Numbered from the stretch's first letter, positions 6,879 to 24,399 are shown. The stretch: 26,604 nucleotides of DNA from an archaeon (GCA_043810775.1 JBDRNU010000022.1:1-26604); one strand, 5' to 3'. Made by a program: numbers and translations. Notes: generated from the letters alone by a model not told the origin.

Positions 6879-7420
6879 ATTATACTGGCTTTGATTATCT
6901 TAACTTCTTCGATAGGCCTATCTGAAGAATCAGTTTCTACTTTTGCGATTGCATCTATTACATCCATGCCTTGAATTACTTTGCCAAATGCTGGATGCTT
7001 ATCATCAAGAAAATTATTGTTGACTAGGTTAATGAAAAACTGGCTTCCCCCTGTATTTGGACCTGCATTTGCCATTGAAATTGTGCCTCGATTATTTTTA
7101 TTTCCACCTTTATGGGTGAATTCGTCTTTTATAGTGTATCCTGGCCCACCCATTCCTGTTCCTTGAGGGTCGCCGCCCTGAATCATAAAACTGGCAATTA
7201 TTCTATGGAAAATTACCCCATCATAAAATCCCTGATTAACCAGTTTCTCAAAATTTCCAGCTGTAACTGGCATGTCATCATACAGTTCAATTACTACATC
7301 TCCCATACTGGTTTCAAGTTTTACTTTGGTAGATTGAGACATTTTACAATATACTCCTGAAATAACTAAAATTAGAGCTATTATAAATATTCCTAAAATA
7401 ATTTTTTTCTGTTTTTTCAT
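6875..7420 (-). CDS. Cyclophilin-type peptidyl-prolyl cis-trans isomerase with N-terminal membrane anchor
   Basis: Cyclophilin signatures FHRIIASFMIQGGDP and GTISMANAGPNTGGSQFFI. N-terminus KKIILGIFIIALILVISGVY is hydrophobic. ATGA overlap with the upstream topoisomerase gene. Confidence 0.9.
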   Translation of the reverse strand: MKKQKKIILGIFIIALILVISGVYCKMSQSTKVKLETSMGDVVIELYDDMPVTAGNFEKLVNQGFYDGVIFHRIIASFMIQGGDPQGTGMGGPGYTIKDEFTHKGGNKNNRGTISMANAGPNTGGSQFFINLVNNNFLDDKHPAFGKVIQGMDVIDAIAKVETDSSDRPIEEVKIIKASII

Positions 7421-8472
7421 TGGACTAGTGACTTTATTTTATCTACCAGCTCTGGTTGAATATAGTGATGAATAGTAACATTATAATTTTCTTCCCAGGT
7501 ATGATCTTTTTTATTAAATCGCCTATGACCTAGTTTTTCTGCAATTGACAGGAAAAGCTCCTGAACTTGCTGTTTTGATGCTGATTTATGGGAAGATATG
7601 AATTCTTTAGCTTTTTTAGTGGCATAATATGAGCGGACTATGTGGGGATAAAATTCTTTTCCACAGCATTTTAAAAATTCTTCCTTGAACTGCTTGTCTT
7701 GAAGTGGATGATGTGTTAAGGGGTTGGTAAATACGAACTCTGATTTTTTCAGAGGTTTTAGAGTTTCTTTTAGTCTTTTTATGTACAATGGATGGAATTT
7801 TGAGGTTGTTTTTATTGGAACTCCGTCTTTTGCCAGATAGTTAAAAGTAACTTCCTGACCTTTAATTGAAATGTCATTTTTCTTTAAAGTAGTAAGACCT
7901 TTATGTTTATGCTGCTTGTAATAAATTTCGTTTCCCACCCTCATATAGGTTTTAAGCAGGGTGTACATTGGGAGAGCCATGTTATCTTCTTTATCGCTGA
8001 GGGAAGATGTGATTTTTTTTGTAAGTAGTGGATAGGATTTTTCAAATTCTTTTACTGCCTGATATTTTTTAATTATGTAAGATTTTCTTTTTTCTAGAGT
8101 GTATAGATATGCAAACTTACCATTTGGATTTTGATAAATTAGGTCCCAGTGGCTATGGGAAGATTCATCATGGATAGTCAGGTTTTTTGCAAATAAAGAA
8201 TAGGCTTTGTCAAGAACTTGGCCGTCTGGAAGGATATTTATTCTAGAACCCTGACATTTGCCTTCTGGAGAGAGCTGTCCTTTTATGAATTTAGGGTTTT
8301 TTTTATCCAATAGTAACTTGAAATTCTTGTGAGCTTTGAATAGTTTTATAACTTGCATTGCTTGTGGAAGAGTTTTAGAAGATTTTTTCCAAGAATTTTT
8401 AGTTTTCTCGTATACTTGAAGGTCTTTGGATATTCTTAGAGTTCCTAGACTTGTTTTTTCCTGAGTTTTCAT
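7417..8472 (-). CDS. DNA topoisomerase IB (short pox/bacterial-type)
   Basis: Core motifs YMRVGNEIY, KGLTTLKK, FNYLAKDGV, PHIVRSYYATK, LGHRRF and C-terminal TIHHYIQP (candidate catalytic Tyr). The 351-aa length fits the small TopIB group. Confidence 0.75.
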   Translation of the reverse strand: MKTQEKTSLGTLRISKDLQVYEKTKNSWKKSSKTLPQAMQVIKLFKAHKNFKLLLDKKNPKFIKGQLSPEGKCQGSRINILPDGQVLDKAYSLFAKNLTIHDESSHSHWDLIYQNPNGKFAYLYTLEKRKSYIIKKYQAVKEFEKSYPLLTKKITSSLSDKEDNMALPMYTLLKTYMRVGNEIYYKQHKHKGLTTLKKNDISIKGQEVTFNYLAKDGVPIKTTSKFHPLYIKRLKETLKPLKKSEFVFTNPLTHHPLQDKQFKEEFLKCCGKEFYPHIVRSYYATKKAKEFISSHKSASKQQVQELFLSIAEKLGHRRFNKKDHTWEENYNVTIHHYIQPELVDKIKSLVQ

Positions 8473-9855: not shown

Positions 9856-10794
9856 ATGAATAAAACAGACGAAAAACTAATAGCTGAACTTGACAAGAAT
9901 CCCAGAATTGCAATTTCCAGACTAGCCAGGAAGCTGAGAATTTCACAGCAGGTAGCTGACTATAGACTGAAGAAACTTCAGAAGCAGGAAGTAATTTCCA
10001 AGCTTGGAGCAATAATTAATCTCAAGTCTCTTGGATTAGAGCATTATAGGGTATTTTTTTCTTTTAACTCGAGAAAGGAGTATTCAGATGAAAAGATTTT
10101 CAGCTATCTGAAAAATAAGAAAGGAGTTTATTGGGGGGCGAGGATTGGGGGCAGGTATGACCTGCATCTAGCATTGCTAGTTAAGGATTTTCAGGAGTTA
10201 GATGAGTTTATTGATGATTTTAATTCTAGCTTTCCAGGGCTGATTAAAGATTATACCAGCTGTTATTCAATTGAGCATATAATATTTAGACATAAGTATC
10301 TTAGCAAGGATTATTCTGAAATAAGCTATGGGTATAATGATAGGCTAAAGAAAACTGACAAACTTGACAGAGAAATACTTGAAAAACTAAAAGATAATTG
10401 CAGGATTTCATCGCTAGAGCTGGCTAAAGGCAAGAATATATCTTATAAAACTATTATAAACAGGATAAAGAGTCTTGAGAAAAACAAAATAATCCTAGGA
10501 TATAGATTATTTATTAAATCACAAGAAAAAAAGCCGTTTATTATACTTTTCTCGTTTAAGGATTATTCTAAGAAAGAGGAAAAAAATCTTATTTCATATC
10601 TTAGCAGAACAGACAGCACTACACAGCTGATAAGGTTATTTGGAAGCTGGAATTTATTTATTCATGCCAGGATTGAAGATAATGAAAAGCTGCAGAAACT
10701 AATAATTGATTTAAGAGATAAATTTGAGATAATTGATAATTTTGAAATTATCCCTGTATTTGAGGATATTGCTATTAATTTGTTTCCTGAATAA
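9856..10794 (+). CDS. Lrp/AsnC-family transcriptional regulator, tandem (double-length) form
   Basis: Two wHTH segments (EKLIAELDKNPRIAISRLARKLRISQQVADYRLKKL and ILEKLKDNCRISSLELAKGKNISYKTIINRIKSL), each followed by a roughly 80-aa RAM-like region. The ATG at 9856 is preferred over the TTG at 9847. Confidence 0.75.
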   Translation: MNKTDEKLIAELDKNPRIAISRLARKLRISQQVADYRLKKLQKQEVISKLGAIINLKSLGLEHYRVFFSFNSRKEYSDEKIFSYLKNKKGVYWGARIGGRYDLHLALLVKDFQELDEFIDDFNSSFPGLIKDYTSCYSIEHIIFRHKYLSKDYSEISYGYNDRLKKTDKLDREILEKLKDNCRISSLELAKGKNISYKTIINRIKSLEKNKIILGYRLFIKSQEKKPFIILFSFKDYSKKEEKNLISYLSRTDSTTQLIRLFGSWNLFIHARIEDNEKLQKLIIDLRDKFEIIDNFEIIPVFEDIAINLFPE

Positions 10795-10795
10795 G

Positions 10796-10891
10796 CTACC
10801 TTATCTTAACAAATGAGCGGAATACAAAATATACTATTGCTCCAATTGACCAGCATATTGGGCAGAAAATTAAATTCCCTCTTTTCTCCAT
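10796..10891 (-). CDS. Possible micro-ORF, 31 aa, hydrophobic (not in the track)
   Basis: Hand translation: MEKRGNLIFCPICWSIGAIVYFVFRSFVKIR*. The ATG lies 1 nt after the TAA of the upstream gene and is preceded by GGAGGAGG. Confidence 0.35.
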   Translation of the reverse strand: MEKRGNLIFCPICWSIGAIVYFVFRSFVKIR

Positions 10892-10892
10892 A

Positions 10893-11408
10893 TTAACCTC
10901 CTCCTTGGTCCTCCCTAGTCATATTTCTGAAATCACTTAACTTTATTCCCCCACATGCTATCAAACGATTATTTGCTTCTTCAACATCTACACCAAATCT
11001 TACAGCATATGCTTCTGGAGAAATATAATCACTACATTCATCACCATCAGGTGCTCCCACTTCATAACTTCTTTGCATAGGAGTACTAGTAGTTTGAATT
11101 TCAAGATTTTGAGCTCTGGCATAAAAAGAGTCTTCTCTCAATTTATCTGTAGCTTTAAGAATGCCTGCAACTACACCACCTAATCCTGTAATTGCATAAG
11201 AGGCAATAGCACCTGTAAGAATAGGACCTAAATTATGAGATTCGAAAAAATTTTGAAAATGAGGGTAAACCCATACTTTAGATATGATTACAGCAGGTAC
11301 AACCACGGCTGTTCCATAGTAAGCTGAAAATAAAATTCCCATCCCAATACTATTTCCAACTATTTTAGCTATGTTTTCTAAATTATATTTAATAGGAATA
11401 TCACCCAT
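10893..11408 (-). CDS. Membrane protein, 171 aa, with soluble acidic C-terminal half
   Basis: Three hydrophobic segments in the first roughly 85 aa. ATG start, with GTTTAAATTT about 28 nt upstream on the minus strand. Confidence 0.65.
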   Translation of the reverse strand: MGDIPIKYNLENIAKIVGNSIGMGILFSAYYGTAVVVPAVIISKVWVYPHFQNFFESHNLGPILTGAIASYAITGLGGVVAGILKATDKLREDSFYARAQNLEIQTTSTPMQRSYEVGAPDGDECSDYISPEAYAVRFGVDVEEANNRLIACGGIKLSDFRNMTREDQGGG

Positions 11409-11520
11409 ATCCTAACTTAGAATTTAGTAAATTTAAACTTTACTGTAAGGCTCTTGTAGCCCTGATTATTTTCTTGGGATTTAGAGTTAAGTTTAAATAT
11501 AGATTATTATAAAAAGAATT

Positions 11521-11898
11521 ATGGAATATTTGCTTGTTGATGATGATAAAAATGATATAGCTATGGTGAGGCCCAGACTAGAACATTTAGGGTTTAATGT
11601 TTCTGTCCGCATGATTGTTGATTTTGATGGGTTAAATAAGCTGAATAAAGAAAGAAAGCCAGAAGTAATCCAACTTGATGGGTTAGATGGTAAATGCTTT
11701 GAATTATATGATATATTTAAATCAGGGAATCCTGAATCAAATATTTTCATTTGTTCTGGAGATGATGATATTGGAAGAAAATCCAAAGAAATGAATATAC
11801 ATTTTATACATAAGGGTATGAATTATGTTGATGATATTGTGGATTATGTAACTCCTTTTATTGAAAAAAAGAGGGCTTTAAACGGGCAGGCAGTCTAA
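11521..11898 (+). CDS. Stand-alone CheY-like receiver domain protein
   Basis: LLVDDD acidic pocket, candidate phospho-acceptor in VIQLDGLDG, S in IFICSGDD and K in FIHKG at receiver-like spacing. Confidence 0.6.
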   Translation: MEYLLVDDDKNDIAMVRPRLEHLGFNVSVRMIVDFDGLNKLNKERKPEVIQLDGLDGKCFELYDIFKSGNPESNIFICSGDDDIGRKSKEMNIHFIHKGMNYVDDIVDYVTPFIEKKRALNGQAV

Positions 11899-14937: not shown

Positions 14938-15483
14938 TTAATTAAAGAAAGTGTTAAGAATCTCTTTTGTAATTTCTAGAGATTTATCACAAAAATTCTT
15001 TAAATTTCTTGAAGAGCTGTTTTTAAAGTAAACATTTTCAACTATCTTATCTTTGTTTCTAACAGAACGCACTGCTGGAACAAAATCACCATCTCCTGAT
15101 ACTAAAATTGCAATATCAAAATTATTATCACAAGCATTCTCCACCATATCAACAGCCATATTTATGTCATCTTCTTTTATAATATAATAAAATTTATTTG
15201 TTCCGGTTATATTTCTTTTTAATAATTTACATAGGACAAGGTGAAAATTAGGTATTTGCTTTAATTTCTCAAAAAATTCTTTTTGACTTTTGTATTTTTT
15301 AGGATTACGCTCTATGTCAAGAAGGGCATTGTAGTAATAGATTGCAACAACTTTATTTTTACCAGCTAAAAATTGAGCAAATTTTTCAAAATTAAACTTC
15401 TTTAAGCTTTTATTCTGACCGTATAATTTCCTTAAACCAAAATAAAAATTATTTCCATCAATAAAAACAGCAACTCTTTTCAT
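14938..15483 (-). CDS. NYN/LabA-like domain protein (predicted RNase)
   Basis: N-terminal RVAVFIDGNNFYFGL and ILVSGDGDFVPAVRSVR match the NYN/LabA acidic motifs. Confidence 0.8.
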   Translation of the reverse strand: MKRVAVFIDGNNFYFGLRKLYGQNKSLKKFNFEKFAQFLAGKNKVVAIYYYNALLDIERNPKKYKSQKEFFEKLKQIPNFHLVLCKLLKRNITGTNKFYYIIKEDDINMAVDMVENACDNNFDIAILVSGDGDFVPAVRSVRNKDKIVENVYFKNSSSRNLKNFCDKSLEITKEILNTFFN

Positions 15484-15575: not shown

Positions 15576-16265
15576 CTATATTTTATATTTTCTCCAGTTC
15601 ATGCTTTTCCCCAATCCCTTCGCCACCCTGACTGCATCTTTAATCAAGTATCTTGGAAGATTTCTAAGTTCAGCCGGAGTAATGAATATACAGGGGATTT
15701 TATACTTTTTGTACAGCTTGTTTTTTTCAACTTTTTTTTTCCAGGATTTAGGATGCCCACCATAATACTCAATGAATACATTATAGCGGGGAAGGTAAAA
15801 GTCTGGGACGCATATCCAGGCATCAAGCTTCAATGCACTGGATTCATAGCTTGCCTTAATTTTCCTGTCATAAAGAAAATTAGCTATTTGCTGTTCGCCT
15901 TTACTCCTAACTTTGAACTTGAACTTAGTTTTTTGCTTAAGTTCATTGAAATTCCTGCCTCCTGACAGGAATTTTTTCCATGCTTCTGGATGTTCAGCAT
16001 AGTATTTTTTCATTTCTTGAGATTTCTGCTTTCTTACATTTGGATGGTCGCGCCACCATTGAGTCATTATTTTATCGAGCTTGGCCTTATGACTTGGAGA
16101 TAGGTGCTTGCCTTTAGTTGGACTAATTAGCCTCCCTTCTTTATAAGCTCGCTTTAAACCTTTAGAAATATTTTTCTTCATACTGGCTGGAAGCTTTTTC
16201 CCGTGCCAGTATCCTTGCTTTCCAAGCCAATAATATCCTCTACCTGTTTTTTTGTTTTCTGACAT
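15576..16265 (-). CDS. Homing-endonuclease-like protein: NUMOD3-type DNA-binding repeats plus a PD-(D/E)xK-fold nuclease domain
   Basis: Two NUMOD3-like motifs (HGKKLPASMKKNISKGLKRAY and KGKHLSPSHKAKLDKIM). The C-terminus SKGEQQIANFLYDRKIKASYE ... PDFYLPRYNVFIEYYGG resembles restriction-endonuclease-fold domains. Confidence 0.55.
   Translation of the reverse strand: MSENKKTGRGYYWLGKQGYWHGKKLPASMKKNISKGLKRAYKEGRLISPTKGKHLSPSHKAKLDKIMTQWWRDHPNVRKQKSQEMKKYYAEHPEAWKKFLSGGRNFNELKQKTKFKFKVRSKGEQQIANFLYDRKIKASYESSALKLDAWICVPDFYLPRYNVFIEYYGGHPKSWKKKVEKNKLYKKYKIPCIFITPAELRNLPRYLIKDAVRVAKGLGKSMNWRKYKI
15578..15602. repeat. 25-nt exact direct repeat, copy 2
   Basis: Identical to 14885-14909. Here it forms the last eight sense codons of the 229-aa nuclease gene. 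Confidence 0.9.
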
Positions 16266-17965: not shown

Positions 17966-18724
17966 TTAGAAATCATAACTAACACCAGCTAAAGCCCTAA
18001 TTGAATTAATTTCTCCAAAACTAGCCTCCATGCTTTGATAACCTATTGATAAATTGACAGTGACATCGTCTGCTAAATTATATTCAATTCCTAAACTACC
18101 ACTAATGCCAATTGGATTATCACTTTCACTAGTTACACTTTCAAATTCCCCATATCTATCATGACCTGATTCAACTTCAGCATCAATCATTAGAGGCAAG
18201 CCAATTTTCCCTACTAATCCAATACTTTCAGAACTTATTCTTCCACCAACATATGGCTCTAACGTAACTAGGCCTGGCACAAACTGAGTATAGACAAAAG
18301 AGGCATTATCTCCAGGACGCCTATCAGATGATTGTTTTTTTACATCATACATACCTTCCCTATATCCATCTGCGAAAAAACCAGAATTAATAATAGCATC
18401 AGCTCCAAATAAAAACCTTAGAACATCAGTGCCATATGAACCTTCAACACCTAATCTTAATCCAATATCTTCTCCACTATTAAGATTAGTATCAGTAGTT
18501 CCTGATAAAAAACCAGCATCATCAGGATGTACATCAACTGTCTGTACATCATCATTTATCTTAAGATTATAAAAATTAAAGTCTAAACCAAAGTTTCCCC
18601 TAGTCTCAAAATATTTATCTCGGCTTTTTGAATCTGAATCACTTGATGCAAATGCTGGAACTGGAATAAGAGGCAGTAAAGTAGTGAGTAGAATAGCTGC
18701 AATTTTTGAAAATCTTTTAGCCAT
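17966..18724 (-). CDS. Secreted protein resembling a bacterial outer-membrane beta-barrel
   Basis: Signal peptide ending PAFA-SS. Repeated amphipathic beta-strand-like segments (GLRLGVEGSYG, GISGSLGIEYNL, VTVNLSIGYQSM). C-terminus ALAGVSYDF ends in an aromatic residue, like an OMP beta-signal. Confidence 0.55.
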   Translation of the reverse strand: MAKRFSKIAAILLTTLLPLIPVPAFASSDSDSKSRDKYFETRGNFGLDFNFYNLKINDDVQTVDVHPDDAGFLSGTTDTNLNSGEDIGLRLGVEGSYGTDVLRFLFGADAIINSGFFADGYREGMYDVKKQSSDRRPGDNASFVYTQFVPGLVTLEPYVGGRISSESIGLVGKIGLPLMIDAEVESGHDRYGEFESVTSESDNPIGISGSLGIEYNLADDVTVNLSIGYQSMEASFGEINSIRALAGVSYDF

Positions 18725-19318: not shown

Positions 19319-19347
19319 TTAAAATATCAGGCTTTCCACACCTGACT

Positions 19348-20964
19348 TTATTTTGACTTTATGATTTCTACCTTATCTCCAGGAGATAGGTTAAAATCTT
19401 CCCATTTTTCTTCAGAAATAACTTCCCCATTAACTCTTACCAATGGTATTCCTTCAATTTTATATCTTTGAAGCATTGATTCAATTGATGTATATATACA
19501 AATAAATGGCTCTCCTTCCCTTATTATAACTTCTGCAGATTTTTCATTCATTAGAGTTTGGGAAAGCTCCAATAATTTCCTGATTTTTTCACTGCCCTCT
19601 TCTCTAATAAGAGTCTTATTTTCAATTAAAGTATTTAAATCATTAATTACAGTAAAAACTTGATTTAAAACAGGATCATAATCAGGATGGTCTTCTAGTA
19701 TAACTTGATAAGTATTCTTTGACCACTGCCTAAATCCTTTATTTCGGTCATCTTGGGTTGCTTCCTTTTTTCCAGTTAAAATGAGATTAATAACTTCTGC
19801 AACATAGTAATCAAACTCACTTACTTTTTTAGGATCAAGATATTTACTTTCTGCCATTGCTTGCATTCTGTCATAAGGATGAACTGCACCCTGGATTTTG
19901 AGTTCAACTTCTTCATCTGTTAGTCCTACTAGTGATTCTAGACTTGGTTCTTTTCCTTCTTTTCTGGCTTTTCTTGCAGCTGCTTTTTCAAATTTTTCCT
20001 GAAATCTGGAATCTACTTCTTTATCTTTTTCTTTTTGAGCTGCCTGTTCTTTTAGTTTTTCTTCAATTGAAATGCTTTTATAACATTGATATAAGGTAGA
20101 ATGATAACTTCCTAATTCTCTTAGTCCCCGCTCTATAATTTCATGATTTGCTGTATGCTCTTCAATATGCTTTCTTAATAAAGAAACATATAGCCTAGCT
20201 GCTTTCTCACTCGAATTTAAAGTTGTTTTAATATTATTTCTTCTAAGAACTCGGTTAACTCCTTTAAACTGTCCGTCTAATTCTGGATCAAAAATAATAT
20301 TAACTGCTTTATATAACATTCCCAAGGATTCAGCCACTTTATCTCTTTTTTTACCTACTTCAATAATTGCTGTTACATTTTCTTCATTAGTTAGAAGTTT
20401 ATGGGCATAGGAAATACATTTCACATTTTCCCAGTTGCTTCCTGGATAGCTAGTTGGAGTGTCATATCCTTTTGGGCCTGGTAAAGCTAGTCTCTGGCTT
20501 GTTGGAGCTGCTGCTATTTCTTTTAATCTTCCAGCTGTTTCTCCCAATCCTCCAAGAAGTAATTTAAGCCTATATAGAGGATCTTGACTAAGTTCAGTTA
20601 CCACTAAATCTTTGATTCTGCTATTTTTATCAACATCATTAAGCCCATGAAGAATTAATTCCAGATTATCAGGGTGTCTTCTTACATAATCTGACATTAA
20701 AACAGCAACTCTTGGAACTATATCTTTTTGAGTTCCTAATTCCATCATCACTTTCCAATAAATATTATAAATACCTCTTAAATGAGTATGTAACTTGGTT
20801 ATCTCTTTTTTTTCGCAGATAAATTCTATCCCCTTATGTAGAAATTCAACATACTCTGAATGCTTAAGGAACTTATTTACATTTGGGCTTTTTTTCCCTG
20901 TTCTAGGCCAAATATTATAAACTGCTTCAAAAATCTTGCCAGTGTTTAGGTATTGCTCTCCCAT
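19348..20964 (-). CDS. Large orphan protein, 538 aa, with a C-terminal ThiS/MoaD-like beta-grasp domain lacking a GG terminus
   Basis: The last roughly 65 aa (EVIIREGEPFICIYTSIESMLQRYKIEGIPLVRVNGEVISEEKWEDFNLSPGDKVEIIKSK) reproduce the ThiS spacing N-x8-W-x7-GD. The helical, Lys/Glu-rich N-terminal 470 aa are unrecognised. Confidence 0.7.
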   Translation of the reverse strand: MGEQYLNTGKIFEAVYNIWPRTGKKSPNVNKFLKHSEYVEFLHKGIEFICEKKEITKLHTHLRGIYNIYWKVMMELGTQKDIVPRVAVLMSDYVRRHPDNLELILHGLNDVDKNSRIKDLVVTELSQDPLYRLKLLLGGLGETAGRLKEIAAAPTSQRLALPGPKGYDTPTSYPGSNWENVKCISYAHKLLTNEENVTAIIEVGKKRDKVAESLGMLYKAVNIIFDPELDGQFKGVNRVLRRNNIKTTLNSSEKAARLYVSLLRKHIEEHTANHEIIERGLRELGSYHSTLYQCYKSISIEEKLKEQAAQKEKDKEVDSRFQEKFEKAAARKARKEGKEPSLESLVGLTDEEVELKIQGAVHPYDRMQAMAESKYLDPKKVSEFDYYVAEVINLILTGKKEATQDDRNKGFRQWSKNTYQVILEDHPDYDPVLNQVFTVINDLNTLIENKTLIREEGSEKIRKLLELSQTLMNEKSAEVIIREGEPFICIYTSIESMLQRYKIEGIPLVRVNGEVISEEKWEDFNLSPGDKVEIIKSK

Positions 20965-21091
20965 CTAAAATTTGCAATAAAGGATAATTTTTAAATAAAT
21001 CTATACTGGAAAATAGACTTTTCCTCCACCTGCCACTCTCTTTAGCTGATAACAATAAATTTTATATATACTAAAATTACAGATAATTACA

Positions 21092-21766
21092 ATGAAAGTA
21101 GGGAAATATGAAATTGATGAAGATAGAGTAGCTATATTAAACTCAAGTATGGGTCCGAGTTCAGAGAGTGCTTTTTTAACTTTATTTGAAAAATATATTG
21201 AAGACCGTGAAAAACCATTAATGATTGTTCTTAATACTACTGGAGGTTTGGCATTATCGCCAATGAATCTAGTAAATTTATGCCATTATGGGCATCCTAA
21301 ACCTAATTTAATAACATATGCTTTTGAAAAGTGCATGTCTGCAGGAGTAATAGCTATGCAGTTTGGCACTAGGAGAATTTCTGACCCAGACACAAAATTT
21401 ATGTTTCACCCGATTCGCAATATGCTTACAGGTGAAATCGCTAAACCAGACTCTTTAACATGGAGAATTGATAAATCAATTTACAAATCACTTGCAGACA
21501 GATGCGGAGTAAGTGTTGAACAATTGCGGGATGATTTTCCCAATGATGTATATCTTAGTGCTCAAGAAGCTATGATTTATGGAAAAAAAGGACTAATTGA
21601 CGAAATTGTGCAGGCACCTCCTGAATTAAGAGACAAAGTTAAGAATGGACTAAGAAGTGATATAAGCATGGAGGAGCTTGAAAAGTTAATTAATAGAATA
21701 AGTGAGATTACACTGCAATTAGCTGAAGAGCATATGAAAAGAGTTCGTTCTGAAAAGAACAAATAA
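21092..21766 (+). CDS. ClpP-family (S14-like) serine protease homologue with a coiled-coil-like C-terminal tail
   Basis: Aligns by eye with E. coli ClpP: MIVLNTTGG vs LYINSPGG, EKCMSAGV vs QAASMGA (Ser), KFMFHPI vs RVMIHQP (His), VYLSAQEAMIYG..IDEI vs RFLSAPEAVEYGLVDSI. Confidence 0.7.
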   Translation: MKVGKYEIDEDRVAILNSSMGPSSESAFLTLFEKYIEDREKPLMIVLNTTGGLALSPMNLVNLCHYGHPKPNLITYAFEKCMSAGVIAMQFGTRRISDPDTKFMFHPIRNMLTGEIAKPDSLTWRIDKSIYKSLADRCGVSVEQLRDDFPNDVYLSAQEAMIYGKKGLIDEIVQAPPELRDKVKNGLRSDISMEELEKLINRISEITLQLAEEHMKRVRSEKNK

Positions 21767-21784
21767 TCTTAATTTAATTTTTTA
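21755..21784. repeat. 30-nt exact direct repeat, copy 2
   Basis: Identical to 17761-17790. It covers K-N-K-stop of the ClpP-like gene plus the spacer and 3' end of the convergent exonuclease gene. Confidence 0.9.
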
Positions 21785-22370
21785 ATGAGTTTAATACTTG
21801 CTCAAATTCTTTGGCTTGAATAATAGCATCTTCTAGGGCGTTATGTTTTAGATCGGAACCTCTTAGGCCAAGCTGAGCTATGTGTGCATTAATATCGCGA
21901 ACAGCTCCACGATACATAGAATTAATATCTTCCCCACTATGCCCAAAAGGATTCTGACCTTGATAAAAATTATCAAAATACCAGGCAGTGAACATTCCGT
22001 CAAATTTTATTGGAGCTGCTGCTTCAACTGGCTTAAATCCTTTAGTATTAGATGAAACCCATTCTGCGTAATCTTTCATTACTTTTTCAGGAGATTCGCC
22101 TTTTTCTGCCAGAATATCAAGAATTTTATGAGGATTGAAACTTGGACTTTTAGGATTAAATTCATCAAGATGCCTTAAATCTGACAAGCATCTTAATCCT
22201 ATAGAACTTACTTTCATTGCCTCAAGAATAAAATTTCTAGAAATTGGCTTAATCTCACGATAAAACTGAATTGAGGTATCTCCTACAATACAAGCTCCTA
22301 AAGAAAGCATTGAGTATTTTCCCGGAGTTCGACCTGAAGATTCAATATCAACTGATACGTATTTTTTCAT
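21774..22370 (-). CDS. DEDDh 3'-5' exonuclease (DnaQ/RNase T-like)
   Basis: Exo I motif VSVDIESSG and Exo III motif HNALEDAIIQA (H-x4-D), in a 198-aa protein. Confidence 0.75.
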   Translation of the reverse strand: MKKYVSVDIESSGRTPGKYSMLSLGACIVGDTSIQFYREIKPISRNFILEAMKVSSIGLRCLSDLRHLDEFNPKSPSFNPHKILDILAEKGESPEKVMKDYAEWVSSNTKGFKPVEAAAPIKFDGMFTAWYFDNFYQGQNPFGHSGEDINSMYRGAVRDINAHIAQLGLRGSDLKHNALEDAIIQAKEFEQVLNSLKN

Positions 22371-22794
22371 AATATTTTTTTGGATTTAGTTGAGTTTCAA
22401 GTGAATTAATAGTATTCCTAAATTTATCTGATGAAGCTAGCCTTCCTAAAGCAAAAGCTGTTGCTGAACCTGCCCAAAAAGCAGCTATGTCTTTTAAATC
22501 GTAGGTGCCTGGCCAAATATGGGCTTTTTGCAAGAGCTCTACAGCTGTCCAGTAGATTGATATAAGAAATGCACCTTTTAGATGAGATTTTATATCATCT
22601 TGGTCTTCATCTCCATTAAACCAGGTAGTTAAGGCAAGAGATGTACCAAAGTCTCCAAACTGCCCAGAAACAAAGGAATAAGGAATTAAATGTGCAACCT
22701 GAAGAGCTTGTGCAGTTAATCCAGTTGCAGCTATTCCAATGCCTACTTTATTAGCTGTTTTATTCATGAAATCATAAAATGATTGTTTATTCAT
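22348..22794 (-). CDS. Hypothetical membrane protein, 148 aa
   Basis: Several hydrophobic segments. Its 3' end overlaps the exonuclease start by 23 nt, implying co-transcription. Confidence 0.6.
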   Translation of the reverse strand: MNKQSFYDFMNKTANKVGIGIAATGLTAQALQVAHLIPYSFVSGQFGDFGTSLALTTWFNGDEDQDDIKSHLKGAFLISIYWTAVELLQKAHIWPGTYDLKDIAAFWAGSATAFALGRLASSDKFRNTINSLETQLNPKKYYEKIRIS

Positions 22795-23013: not shown

Positions 23014-23325
23014 ATGAAGTTACATGTAGGAAATTTGGCTTATTCTGTGAACGAAGCTGCTTTGAAGAAACTTTTCGCTGCTTATGAAGTGCAAGAAGTT
23101 ATAATCATTTCAGACAAGTTTTCAGGAAGGTCTAAAGGATTTGGTTTTGTGACAATTGAAGACGATGAAGCTGCCAAGAAGGCAATTTCAGAGCTTAATG
23201 GCAAGGAAGTTGACGGCCGTGAGCTTAAAGTTTCAGAAGCCAAGCCAATGGAAGAACGCCCTAGAAGAGATTTTGGAAGAAGAGAACATAGTGGCGGTGG
23301 TTTTAATCAGAGACGAAGATATTAG
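23014..23325 (+). CDS. RRM-type RNA-binding protein with an Arg/Gly-rich tail
   Basis: RNP-2 LHVGNL and RNP-1 KGFGFVTI. C-terminal RPRRDFGRREHSGGGFNQRRRY. Strong AGGAGG 5 nt upstream of the ATG. Confidence 0.9.
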   Translation: MKLHVGNLAYSVNEAALKKLFAAYEVQEVIIISDKFSGRSKGFGFVTIEDDEAAKKAISELNGKEVDGRELKVSEAKPMEERPRRDFGRREHSGGGFNQRRRY

Positions 23326-23876: not shown

Positions 23877-24251
23877 TTATTCAATCTTCAGTGCTTTCAT
23901 AATTTTATCAAGCTTTACATTGATTTTGTCAAGCTGTTCTGAACTAGCTGAACCTCTTGAACTATCACTTTTACCAAAACACTCGTTACAGTAGATTGGC
24001 TTGCCTTTAGTTGGCTTAAATGGAACTTCACATTTTTTACCACACTCATCACATATAACTTTGTGCATTTCAGGTGGCCCTCTTCTTGAACTTCTGAAGT
24101 CTCTGTCTCTCCCACCGAATCCTCTATTGCTTCCTCTATCTCGAAAACTTCTATCACTAGAATCAGAGTCTCTATCTCTAAAGCTTCTTCCTCCTGATCT
24201 TCCGCTAAATCTGCCTCCCCCGCCCCTGTTATCTTTTCTATAGCCTGCCAT
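23877..24251 (-). CDS. CxxC-x17-CxxC zinc-ribbon protein with an RGG/RS-like repetitive N-terminal region (the track version starts at a TTG at 24341)
   Basis: CDECGKKCEVPFKPTKGKPIYCNEC has exactly 17 residues between the CxxC pairs. The ATG at 24251 has TTTTATATA about 30 nt upstream on the minus strand. N-terminus: GGGGRFSGRSGGRSFRDRDSDSSDRSFRDRGSNRGFGGRDRDF. Confidence 0.75.
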   Translation of the reverse strand: MAGYRKDNRGGGGRFSGRSGGRSFRDRDSDSSDRSFRDRGSNRGFGGRDRDFRSSRRGPPEMHKVICDECGKKCEVPFKPTKGKPIYCNECFGKSDSSRGSASSEQLDKINVKLDKIMKALKIE

Positions 24252-24399
24252 GTTTGTATATTTATGAGGTAAATGTCTGTATATAAAAGTATGTTCTTGA
24301 TGAAAAATTACAGTAAAACTAGAGATTTTAGTGATTTCCAATAACCTTAATTATTTCTGCTTTGAAGAATATTTTAACTGAAACATATCCTAGCAAGAC

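Follow-up and report, generated by a model that had tools for sequence, protein, structure and literature searches.

A putative J-domain protein with a fused ThiS-type beta-grasp and its divergent ClpP-like neighbor on an archaeal-looking contig

Does a protein that ends in a ubiquitin-like (Ubl) fold work together with the ClpP-like protein encoded back to back with it, or are the two genes neighbors of separate function? The question is raised by a contig of 26,604 nucleotides (nt), GCA_043810775.1 JBDRNU010000022.1:1-26604, which is called the window here over its entire length; all coordinates count from its first letter. The window is AT-rich, with approximately 33% G+C, and no tRNA gene was found in it. 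An initial annotation, made from the sequence, had described a gene for an orphan protein of 538 amino acids (aa) and a divergent gene for a ClpP homolog across a gap of 127 nt, and had proposed that the two form a module. The open reading frame (ORF) list confirmed the pair, with the 127-nt spacer at 20965-21091:

19348..20964, minus strand, gene of the 538-aa protein, with a helical N-terminal region, a J-like domain and a ThiS-type beta-grasp (ORF call, relatives, AlphaFold)
21092..21766, plus strand, gene of the 224-aa ClpP-superfamily protein (Pfam CLP_protease, PDB matches, MAFFT)

The reading that we prefer, and which we hold at about even confidence, is that these are two independently transcribed genes without a demonstrated functional link, one for a J/ThiS co-chaperone or adaptor and the other for a divergent ClpP-like protein.

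The 538-aa protein had been regarded as an orphan, but an exhaustive HMMER scan of 1.84 billion representative proteins returned five relatives (P0003-P0007) of 545-600 aa, with E-values of 7e-15 to 5e-7 and essentially end-to-end alignment. Contig scans added one further member of 551 aa and two fragments. Identities for these approximately six relatives were 17-25% over the full-length alignment. Neither the 538-aa protein nor the family alignment found anything but the query protein itself when 5.8 billion proteins were searched by word index, and no relatives were found in viral contigs, phage records or plasmids. The named relatives come from metagenome-assembled genomes (MAGs) of Candidatus Buchananbacteria and "Patescibacteria group bacterium", plus one MAG labeled Gammaproteobacteria. 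The family is very rare and undescribed, about 550 aa in length, and its other known members belong almost all to Patescibacteria, the candidate phyla radiation (CPR).

Within the 538-aa protein, the following features were assigned:

19915..20964, minus strand, N-terminal helical region, residues 1-350 (AlphaFold; no family match)
20440-20484, minus strand, L-x-G-P...Y-P-G motif, residues 161-175 (invariant family columns)
19615..19815, minus strand, J-like domain, residues about 384-450 (family alignment, PDB profile search, hhalign, AlphaFold)
19681-19689, minus strand, HPD motif, residues 426-428 (family alignment, model)
19351..19539, minus strand, ThiS/MoaD-like beta-grasp, residues 476-538, without a Gly-Gly tail (Pfam, TIGR01683, family profile, Foldseek)

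Profile matches and a structural model support a fused, non-conjugatable ThiS-type beta-grasp at the C-terminus. Pfam ThiS (PF02597) matched residues 508-535 with 23.5 bits against a cut-off of 22.5, and TIGR01683 (thiS) matched residues 494-535 at an E-value of 2e-6, its 27.9 bits lying below the equivalog cut-off of 37.45. The C-terminal domain alone, used as query against the PDB, gave a weak match to B. subtilis ThiS. When a family profile built from the 68 C-terminal alignment columns was searched against the PDB, Geobacter ThiS (2k5p) was the best match at 4.5e-4, and ThiS, SAMP2 and PF1061 spanned E-values of 4.5e-4 to 0.24; the top matches included B. subtilis ThiS (1tyg_B), E. coli ThiS (1f0z), SAMP2 and PF1061. 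In the profile alignment to 1f0z, the spacing of VNGEVISEEKW-x7-GD was that of INQQIVPREQW-x7-GD in E. coli ThiS.

The AlphaFold model of the 538-aa protein, with the six-sequence family alignment as input, had a mean predicted local distance difference test score (pLDDT) of 65.7, with 54-82 within the beta-grasp domain, while a single-sequence model (pLDDT 44.8) was too low for use. The domain was modeled as a beta-beta-alpha-beta-beta-beta topology, with strands at 476-481 and 487-490, a helix at 494-500, and strands at 508-511, 514-516 and 531-535. Foldseek aligned it to 1zud_2 (ThiS in the ThiS-ThiF complex) with a template modeling (TM) score of 0.73, to 3cwi (ThiS) with 0.67 and to TtuB with 0.62, and the matches to 3cwi, 1zud_2, TtuB and 2lek had probabilities of 0.99-1.0. 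Thus, the ThiS-like character that the initial annotation had given to the last approximately 65 aa on the basis of residue spacing was confirmed by Pfam, by the family profile and by a model that aligned with ThiS structures.

The 538-aa protein ends in ...VNGEVISEEKWEDFNLSPGDKVEIIKSK (...GDKVEIIKSK), without Gly-Gly. The C-termini of the relatives are VIF, VTF, IFH or LIK, none of them with Gly-Gly, and all members end 2-4 residues past the last strand. The view that the domain is fused and non-conjugatable, taken originally from the IIKSK end, can therefore be extended to the whole family. Since the tail is missing, adenylation, thiocarboxylation or conjugation of the domain would not be possible, and since this applies to all members, a role of the tail-less beta-grasp as an interaction module can reasonably be inferred. 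In Pfam scans of 35 window ORFs, no match was obtained for ThiF, MoeB, ThiG or MoaE, and E1, E2 and JAB were likewise without a match among the window ORFs scanned.

Compared with ThiS, MoaD, TtuB and SAMP, the last 63 residues share the signature NG-x-[IV]...W/F-x7-GD-x-[IV]E and the fold (TM 0.62-0.73). However, the ThiS/MoaD carriers are small, stand-alone proteins with a flexible Gly-Gly tail, whereas here the domain is fused as the last 63 of 538 residues, lacks the tail and has no ThiF/MoeB, ThiG or MoaE partner nearby. One relative (P0004; NCBI MFA5124944.1, 575 aa, at 10001-11728 of its locus L003) is named "sulfur carrier protein ThiS" in the NCBI MAG record. This name is an over-annotation driven by the C-terminal domain alone.

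The remaining approximately 470 aa had been described as a helical region without recognizable features, which does not hold once the family is aligned, because a J-like domain with an HPD motif at 426-428 lies within it. The relatives have in common the pattern YDxYAREVLSLILCGK..P..EEL..GY..WQKLVHPDK.PD, which is the helix I/helix II/HPD/helix III arrangement of a J-domain. The counterpart in the window protein, FDYYVAEVINLILTGKK...GFRQW-SKNTYQV-ILEDHPDYDP, has FDYY in place of the relatives' YDxY and keeps the HPD. J-domains in general activate Hsp70 through the HPD loop, which joins helices II and III. His and Asp of the motif are invariant in the family, and Pro is replaced in two of the six members; a second HPD at residues 97-99 of the 538-aa protein is not conserved across the family.

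When the J-region family profile was searched against the PDB, J-domain proteins made up 29 of the 37 matches listed (best E-value 0.005), including DNAJC5, DNAJA1, DnaJ2, Sis1 and E. coli DnaJ, and the four alignments shown were all in register on HPD. Comparison by hhalign with eight canonical J-domains, whose sequences were entered by hand, so that some caution applies, gave a probability of 91% and an E-value of 1e-6. Furthermore, AlphaFold placed the HPD in the loop joining helices 404-425 and 431-448. The region shares with J-domain proteins (Hsp40/DnaJ) the helix II-HPD-helix III hairpin and the G/A-aromatic and F...I..I..L helix patterns, but the 538-aa protein has no G/F region, zinc finger or DnaJ C-terminal domain. 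The case for a divergent J-domain is strong at the level of the family, and the window protein probably has one too. A literature search on the combination of J-domain and beta-grasp, and on J-domains in Patescibacteria, returned nothing relevant.

The N-terminal helical region had no match in Pfam, PHROG or PADLOC, a PDB search with an N-terminal profile was also empty, and PHROG and PADLOC searches with the 538-aa protein gave no match. Foldseek returned generic helical repeats only, at TM below 0.2. Within this region, the columns L161, G163, P164, Y173, P174 and G175 of the L-x-G-P...Y-P-G motif are invariant in the family. The motif sits in a loop of pLDDT below 50 in the AlphaFold model and could represent either a short linear motif for binding or an active-site loop left unmodeled.

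The neighborhoods of the relatives were compared with that of the window copy. The leucyl-tRNA synthetase gene, leuS, adjoins the family gene in all five to six distinct loci of the relatives, and in four to five distinct loci the two are convergent:

L003, L004 and L005, 11779-14643, leuS beside the family gene, convergent
L006, 12667-15570, leuS beside the family gene, convergent
L010, leuS beside the family gene, convergent

Further neighbors of the relatives are uvrA, ankyrin-repeat, ABC-transporter and small unknown genes. When all 34 window proteins were searched by tblastn against each of the fetched loci (up to +/-10 kb), the 538-aa homolog was the sole match, and no ClpP-like, nucleotidyltransferase or exonuclease gene was found within 10 kb of the relatives. 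Co-occurrence of the family with ClpP-like genes was therefore absent from all five to six loci, which is a small sample. Conversely, no leuS was found near the window copy among the window ORFs scanned. The leuS products beside the relatives carry a NUDIX-domain match inside the synthetase, and in Patescibacteria runs of small unannotated ORFs precede the family gene.

The homology of the 224-aa protein to ClpP, as first annotated, was borne out. Pfam CLP_protease (PF00574) matched residues 31-174 with 49.4 bits against a cut-off of 20.2 (E-value 6.5e-13), and 92 ClpP chains in the PDB matched at E < 0.01, the best at 5e-11. The NCBIfam ClpP equivalogs scored 20-45 bits against cut-offs of 230-360, all far below (clpP TIGR00493, 44.6 bits against 308.6); thus, the protein is not an orthologue. 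Judged by sequence, it is a highly divergent ClpP-superfamily (S14-like) homolog. Its residues were assigned by HMMER alignment to H. pylori ClpP and by MAFFT alignment with E. coli and B. subtilis ClpP:

21332-21334, plus strand, Cys81, at the column of the catalytic Ser (Ser97) (HMMER, MAFFT)
21407-21409, plus strand, His106, on the catalytic His (HMMER, MAFFT)
21545-21547, plus strand, Asp152, on the catalytic Asp (HMMER, MAFFT)

The register is fixed, because neither alignment has a gap from the oxyanion Gly-Gly (G51-G52) through the His motif. The initial annotation had taken Ser, His and Asp candidates from CMSAG, MFHP and an Asp. The His and the Asp stood, as His106 and Asp152, but the Ser did not: Cys81 aligns with the catalytic Ser, Met82 aligns with the conserved Met of ClpP, and Ser83 lies two residues past Cys81 (EKC-M-SAG). 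The Ser-His-Asp triad is thus aligned in part, with Cys in the Ser position and His and Asp retained.

The alignment begins at ClpP residue 26 or so, and approximately 16 N-terminal residues of mature E. coli ClpP are absent. These residues form the axial loops of ClpP, which gate the pore and contact the ClpX/ClpA ATPase. At the other end, the 224-aa protein has an extra, charged C-terminal tail of 50 aa. No match to Clp/AAA+ ATPase families was found among the window ORFs scanned, in agreement with the earlier remark that a Clp ATPase is missing. Compared with ClpP (MEROPS S14), the core fold, the oxyanion Gly-Gly, the post-nucleophile Met, the His and the Asp match, and the handle region is of nearly the same length. 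The differences are the Cys for Ser, the missing axial loops, the added tail, the lack of a Clp ATPase in the ORFs scanned and the location on an archaeal-looking contig. Atypical ClpP relatives that can be named for comparison are the inactive ClpR paralogs, B. subtilis TepA and phage ClpP-like prohead proteases. A literature search on ClpP in DPANN and on Cys-His-Asp ClpP turned up nothing relevant.

Whether the two genes could be controlled together was judged from the intergenic region and its surroundings:

20985..21001, minus strand, TATA-box-like element GATTTATTTAAAAATTA, with about 21 nt between its end and the ATG of the 538-aa gene (motif scan)
21056..21071, plus strand, TATA-box-like element TAAATTTTATATATAC, with about 21 nt between its end and the ATG of the ClpP-like gene (motif scan)
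21008-21024, perfect palindrome GGAAAA-N5-TTTTCC between the back-to-back TATA boxes
19326..19346, minus strand, terminator-like hairpin and T-run directly 3' of the 538-aa gene (consensus scan)

Upstream regions of the window carry a AAAGTTTAAATAC-type motif ending about 21 nt ahead of the ATG. A TATA-like hexamer starts at -36..-26 in 22 of the 33 window genes, with a sharp peak at -29, compared with 2.7 +/- 1.6 at random positions. A Shine-Dalgarno-like tetramer was present for only four of the window genes, and scans for sigma-70 promoters and terminators gave no more than background. Terminator-like sites in the region did not exceed the shuffled expectation, hence the hairpin is weak evidence; the 538-aa gene appears to be monocistronic. 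By these signals, the window shows a pattern of archaeal TFIIB recognition element (BRE)/TATA promoters with leaderless mRNA. The archaeal premise of the initial annotation is reasonable because of this promoter architecture, and the contig is probably archaeal and DPANN-like, although several of its genes have bacterial affinities. No universal marker gene to confirm an archaeal host was found in the window scans.

For the gene pair, the 127-nt region had been called a shared divergent promoter region. The spacer is shared, but the promoter is not, since each gene has a TATA element of its own, roughly 29 nt ahead of its ATG. A second copy of the palindrome, with one mismatch, lies at 7646-7662, and the chance expectation is 0.3 per window. 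The palindrome may be a chance occurrence or a regulator site.

Genes on both sides of the pair bear on a possible conflict island:

14938-15483, minus strand, NYN-domain nuclease
15576-16265, minus strand, PD-(D/E)xK-type protein (PDC-S69, E-value 3e-15; HEAT_CxxC_PD-DEXK)
21774-22370, minus strand, DEDDh exonuclease, Cap18 homolog (PDB 7t2s, E-value 4e-22; PADLOC Effector/Exonuclease, E-value 3e-35)
22348-22794, minus strand, 148-aa protein with three weakly hydrophobic segments, overlapping the exonuclease gene from upstream

The exonuclease gene is convergent with and downstream of the ClpP-like gene, and its product shares 35% identity (E-value 9e-30) with Cap18 of the E. coli type III cyclic oligonucleotide-based antiphage signaling system (CBASS). 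In E. coli, a protein with three transmembrane segments, Cap19, is encoded after Cap18 (10.1101/2022.01.04.474952), and Cap18-type enzymes have been reported to cleave 2'-5'-linked cGAS intermediates (10.1101/2025.03.04.641389). The 148-aa protein was considered as Cap19 and rejected: it is of the same size, yet has no detectable similarity. A 158-aa nucleotidyltransferase had Pfam and PADLOC matches under the cut-offs and a weak match to the candidate system PDC-S09. The NYN, PD-(D/E)xK, nucleotidyltransferase and Cap18-like genes together suggest a loose nucleic-acid conflict cluster.

This locus resembles Cap18 (PDB 7t2s) in the flanking exonuclease and in its small hydrophobic neighbor of Cap19 size, but differs from the Cap18 operon in having no cGAS/DncV-like nucleotidyltransferase (CD-NTase), HORMA or TRIP13, and its small partner is not detectably Cap19-like. 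No cyclase, HORMA, TRIP13, E1, E2 or JAB was found in the window, and the Ubl-conjugation defense partners, E1/E2 and JAB/deubiquitinase (DUB), had no Pfam or PADLOC match. Unlike type II CBASS Cap2/Cap3 and Bil-like systems, the 538-aa protein has neither a conjugatable C-terminus nor an adjacent E1/E2 or JAB/DUB. The resemblance to conflict modules that had been pointed out has some context in the Cap18-like flank, but no support from an E1, E2, JAB or CD-NTase partner.

ClpP and Cap18 are typically bacterial. As the relatives of the 538-aa protein are also bacterial (CPR), the stretch looks like bacterial genes naturalized in an archaeon, and the 538-aa and ClpP-like genes were probably acquired by transfer from bacteria.

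Several other window genes were recorded. A 252-aa protein (17966-18724, minus strand) has a signal peptide, a C-terminal ...SYDF, a Pfam OMP_b-brl match of 30.8 against 28.7 bits and an Opacity porin match; such an outer-membrane-type beta-barrel is unexpected given the archaeal promoters. An RRM-type RNA-binding protein (23014-23325, plus strand) has a strong AAGGAGG Shine-Dalgarno sequence, one of the few in the window, and near it an RGG-rich protein (23877-24341, minus strand) contains a CxxC-x17-CxxC treble-clef zinc finger. A 351-aa protein (7417-8472, minus strand) matches the catalytic core of eukaryotic-type topoisomerase IB (Pfam E-value 2e-15), which is uncommon in prokaryotes.

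The preferred reading, of a J/ThiS co-chaperone or adaptor and an unlinked ClpP-like protein, has to be weighed against several observations that speak against it. Helix II of the window protein has 7 extra residues compared with the relatives, and the two relatives without the Pro carry HLD or HTD in place of HPD. Pfam DnaJ matched two of the six family members at E <= 1 (best 0.018), a signal under the curated threshold, and did not match the window protein, which in this and in its helix II insertion differs from the DnaJ family. The J-region was modeled with a pLDDT of 57-76, a moderate confidence on the basis of six sequences. The ORFs scanned in the 26.6 kb did not include a dnaK, and many DPANN-type archaea lack Hsp70. 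The loci used to judge co-occurrence belong to a different domain of life from the window. Furthermore, the 224-aa protein was a singleton in the word search of 5.8 billion proteins and in metagenome and viral contig scans.

The module of the initial annotation, in which a fused Ubl adaptor and a divergent ClpP-like protease form a two-gene quality-control or conflict system, is improbable. The genes lie back to back, 127 nt apart, the palindrome between their TATA boxes could be a shared operator, and a J-domain protein and a protease would both belong to proteostasis. However, such a palindrome is expected by chance at the rate given above, divergent neighbors are common in a compact, strand-alternating genome, and the separate archaeal-type TATA boxes leave a module of Ubl and protease unsupported. 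The relatives have leuS instead of a ClpP-like gene as a neighbor, and because the ClpP-like gene is a singleton, no co-evolution signal exists for the pair. The leuS neighborhood in turn invites the reading that the 538-aa protein has a role other than that of an Hsp70 cofactor, its beta-grasp being a TGS-like RNA/tRNA-binding or translation module and its HPD hairpin a degenerate scaffold. TGS-type beta-grasp domains bind tRNA, and the HLD and HTD variants and the helix II insertion would fit a degenerate hairpin. We nevertheless consider it unlikely, since convergent genes are not co-transcribed, the synteny may reflect relatedness of the MAGs, leuS is missing near the window copy, and the domain matched ThiS, MoaD, SAMP and TtuB, and not TGS, in Pfam, the PDB profile search and Foldseek.

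For the ClpP-like gene, an origin as the remnant head-maturation protease of an integrated archaeal virus was also weighed and is given little credence. PHROG head-maturation protease families matched at E-values of 3e-9 and 2e-8, with one alignment (residues 84-214) reaching into the tail, and prohead proteases typically lack the axial loops and carry an additional helical tail. The match to NCBIfam Clp_rel_HeadMat (NF045542), however, was weak, at 20.6 bits against a cut-off of 120, cellular ClpP models scored higher (Pfam 49.4 bits, PDB E-value 5e-11), and phage tblastn matches reached 24-31% identity with a best E-value of 6e-6. Neither a portal, capsid, terminase or other structural PHROG match among 16 window proteins scanned nor a relative in IMG/VR was found. 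A still wider grouping takes approximately 14.9-22.8 kb as an archaeal defense island, a new CBASS-like or Ubl-linked immune system made up of the nucleotidyltransferase, the J/Ubl protein, the Cys-ClpP-like protease, the Cap18-like exonuclease and the small hydrophobic protein. The clear Cap18 homology of the exonuclease (PADLOC E-value 3e-35), the overlapping gene of Cap19 size and the PDC-S09 and PDC-S69 matches are in its favor, but it is very improbable: gene orientations alternate, the scanned genes have separate promoters, and no CD-NTase-sized cyclase, HORMA/TRIP13, E1/E2 or JAB was found. The nucleotidyltransferase is just 158 aa long with matches below the cut-offs, the 148-aa protein is not similar to Cap19, PADLOC had no match for either the 538-aa or the ClpP-like protein, and the 538-aa relatives occur in a housekeeping setting beside leuS and uvrA. 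Least probable among the readings is a joint archaeal conflict/proteostasis module of CPR-derived parts, comprising the J/ThiS protein, the Cys-ClpP homolog, the Cap18-like exonuclease with its hydrophobic partner and the nucleotidyltransferase. In such a module, the non-conjugatable Ubl and the J-domain would supply or control a thiol ClpP-like chamber that works independently of an ATPase.

Under the preferred reading of two separate genes, the 538-aa protein would most likely act as a specialized Hsp70 co-chaperone or adaptor. From J-domain biology, its J-like domain would bind a DnaK-type ATPase and stimulate it, and the helical region and the non-conjugatable beta-grasp may serve as client- or partner-binding modules. 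Eukaryotes offer an analogy: there, a Ubl is joined to a domain of an Hsp70 cofactor, for example to a J-domain in sacsin/DNAJC29 and to a BAG domain in BAG1. These proteins are architecturally nearest, in that a Ubl-type fold is in the same polypeptide, but the Ubl here is ThiS-type and not ubiquitin-type, C-terminal and prokaryotic, and no homology outside the domains is implied. For the ClpP-like protein, ATPase independence would follow from the missing N-terminal axial-loop segment. Most likely it would be a peptidase that uses a thiol nucleophile and needs no ATPase, or else a ClpP-like scaffold without catalytic activity.

The J-like plus ThiS-fold architecture and the Cys-bearing ClpP homolog are modestly novel, and both proteins are of interest as oddities and do not resolve a long-standing question. 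With a Cys at the nucleophile position, no gating loops and an archaeal setting, the ClpP homolog would be a natural thiol variant or a pseudo-protease. If the domain assignments hold, the 538-aa protein would be a prokaryotic protein uniting an Hsp70-recruiting J-domain with a ubiquitin-like fold, a combination that is, to our knowledge, otherwise known from eukaryotic proteostasis adaptors. The confinement of this J/ThiS family to a handful of CPR bacteria and one archaeal-type contig points to gene exchange between two groups of ultra-small cells.

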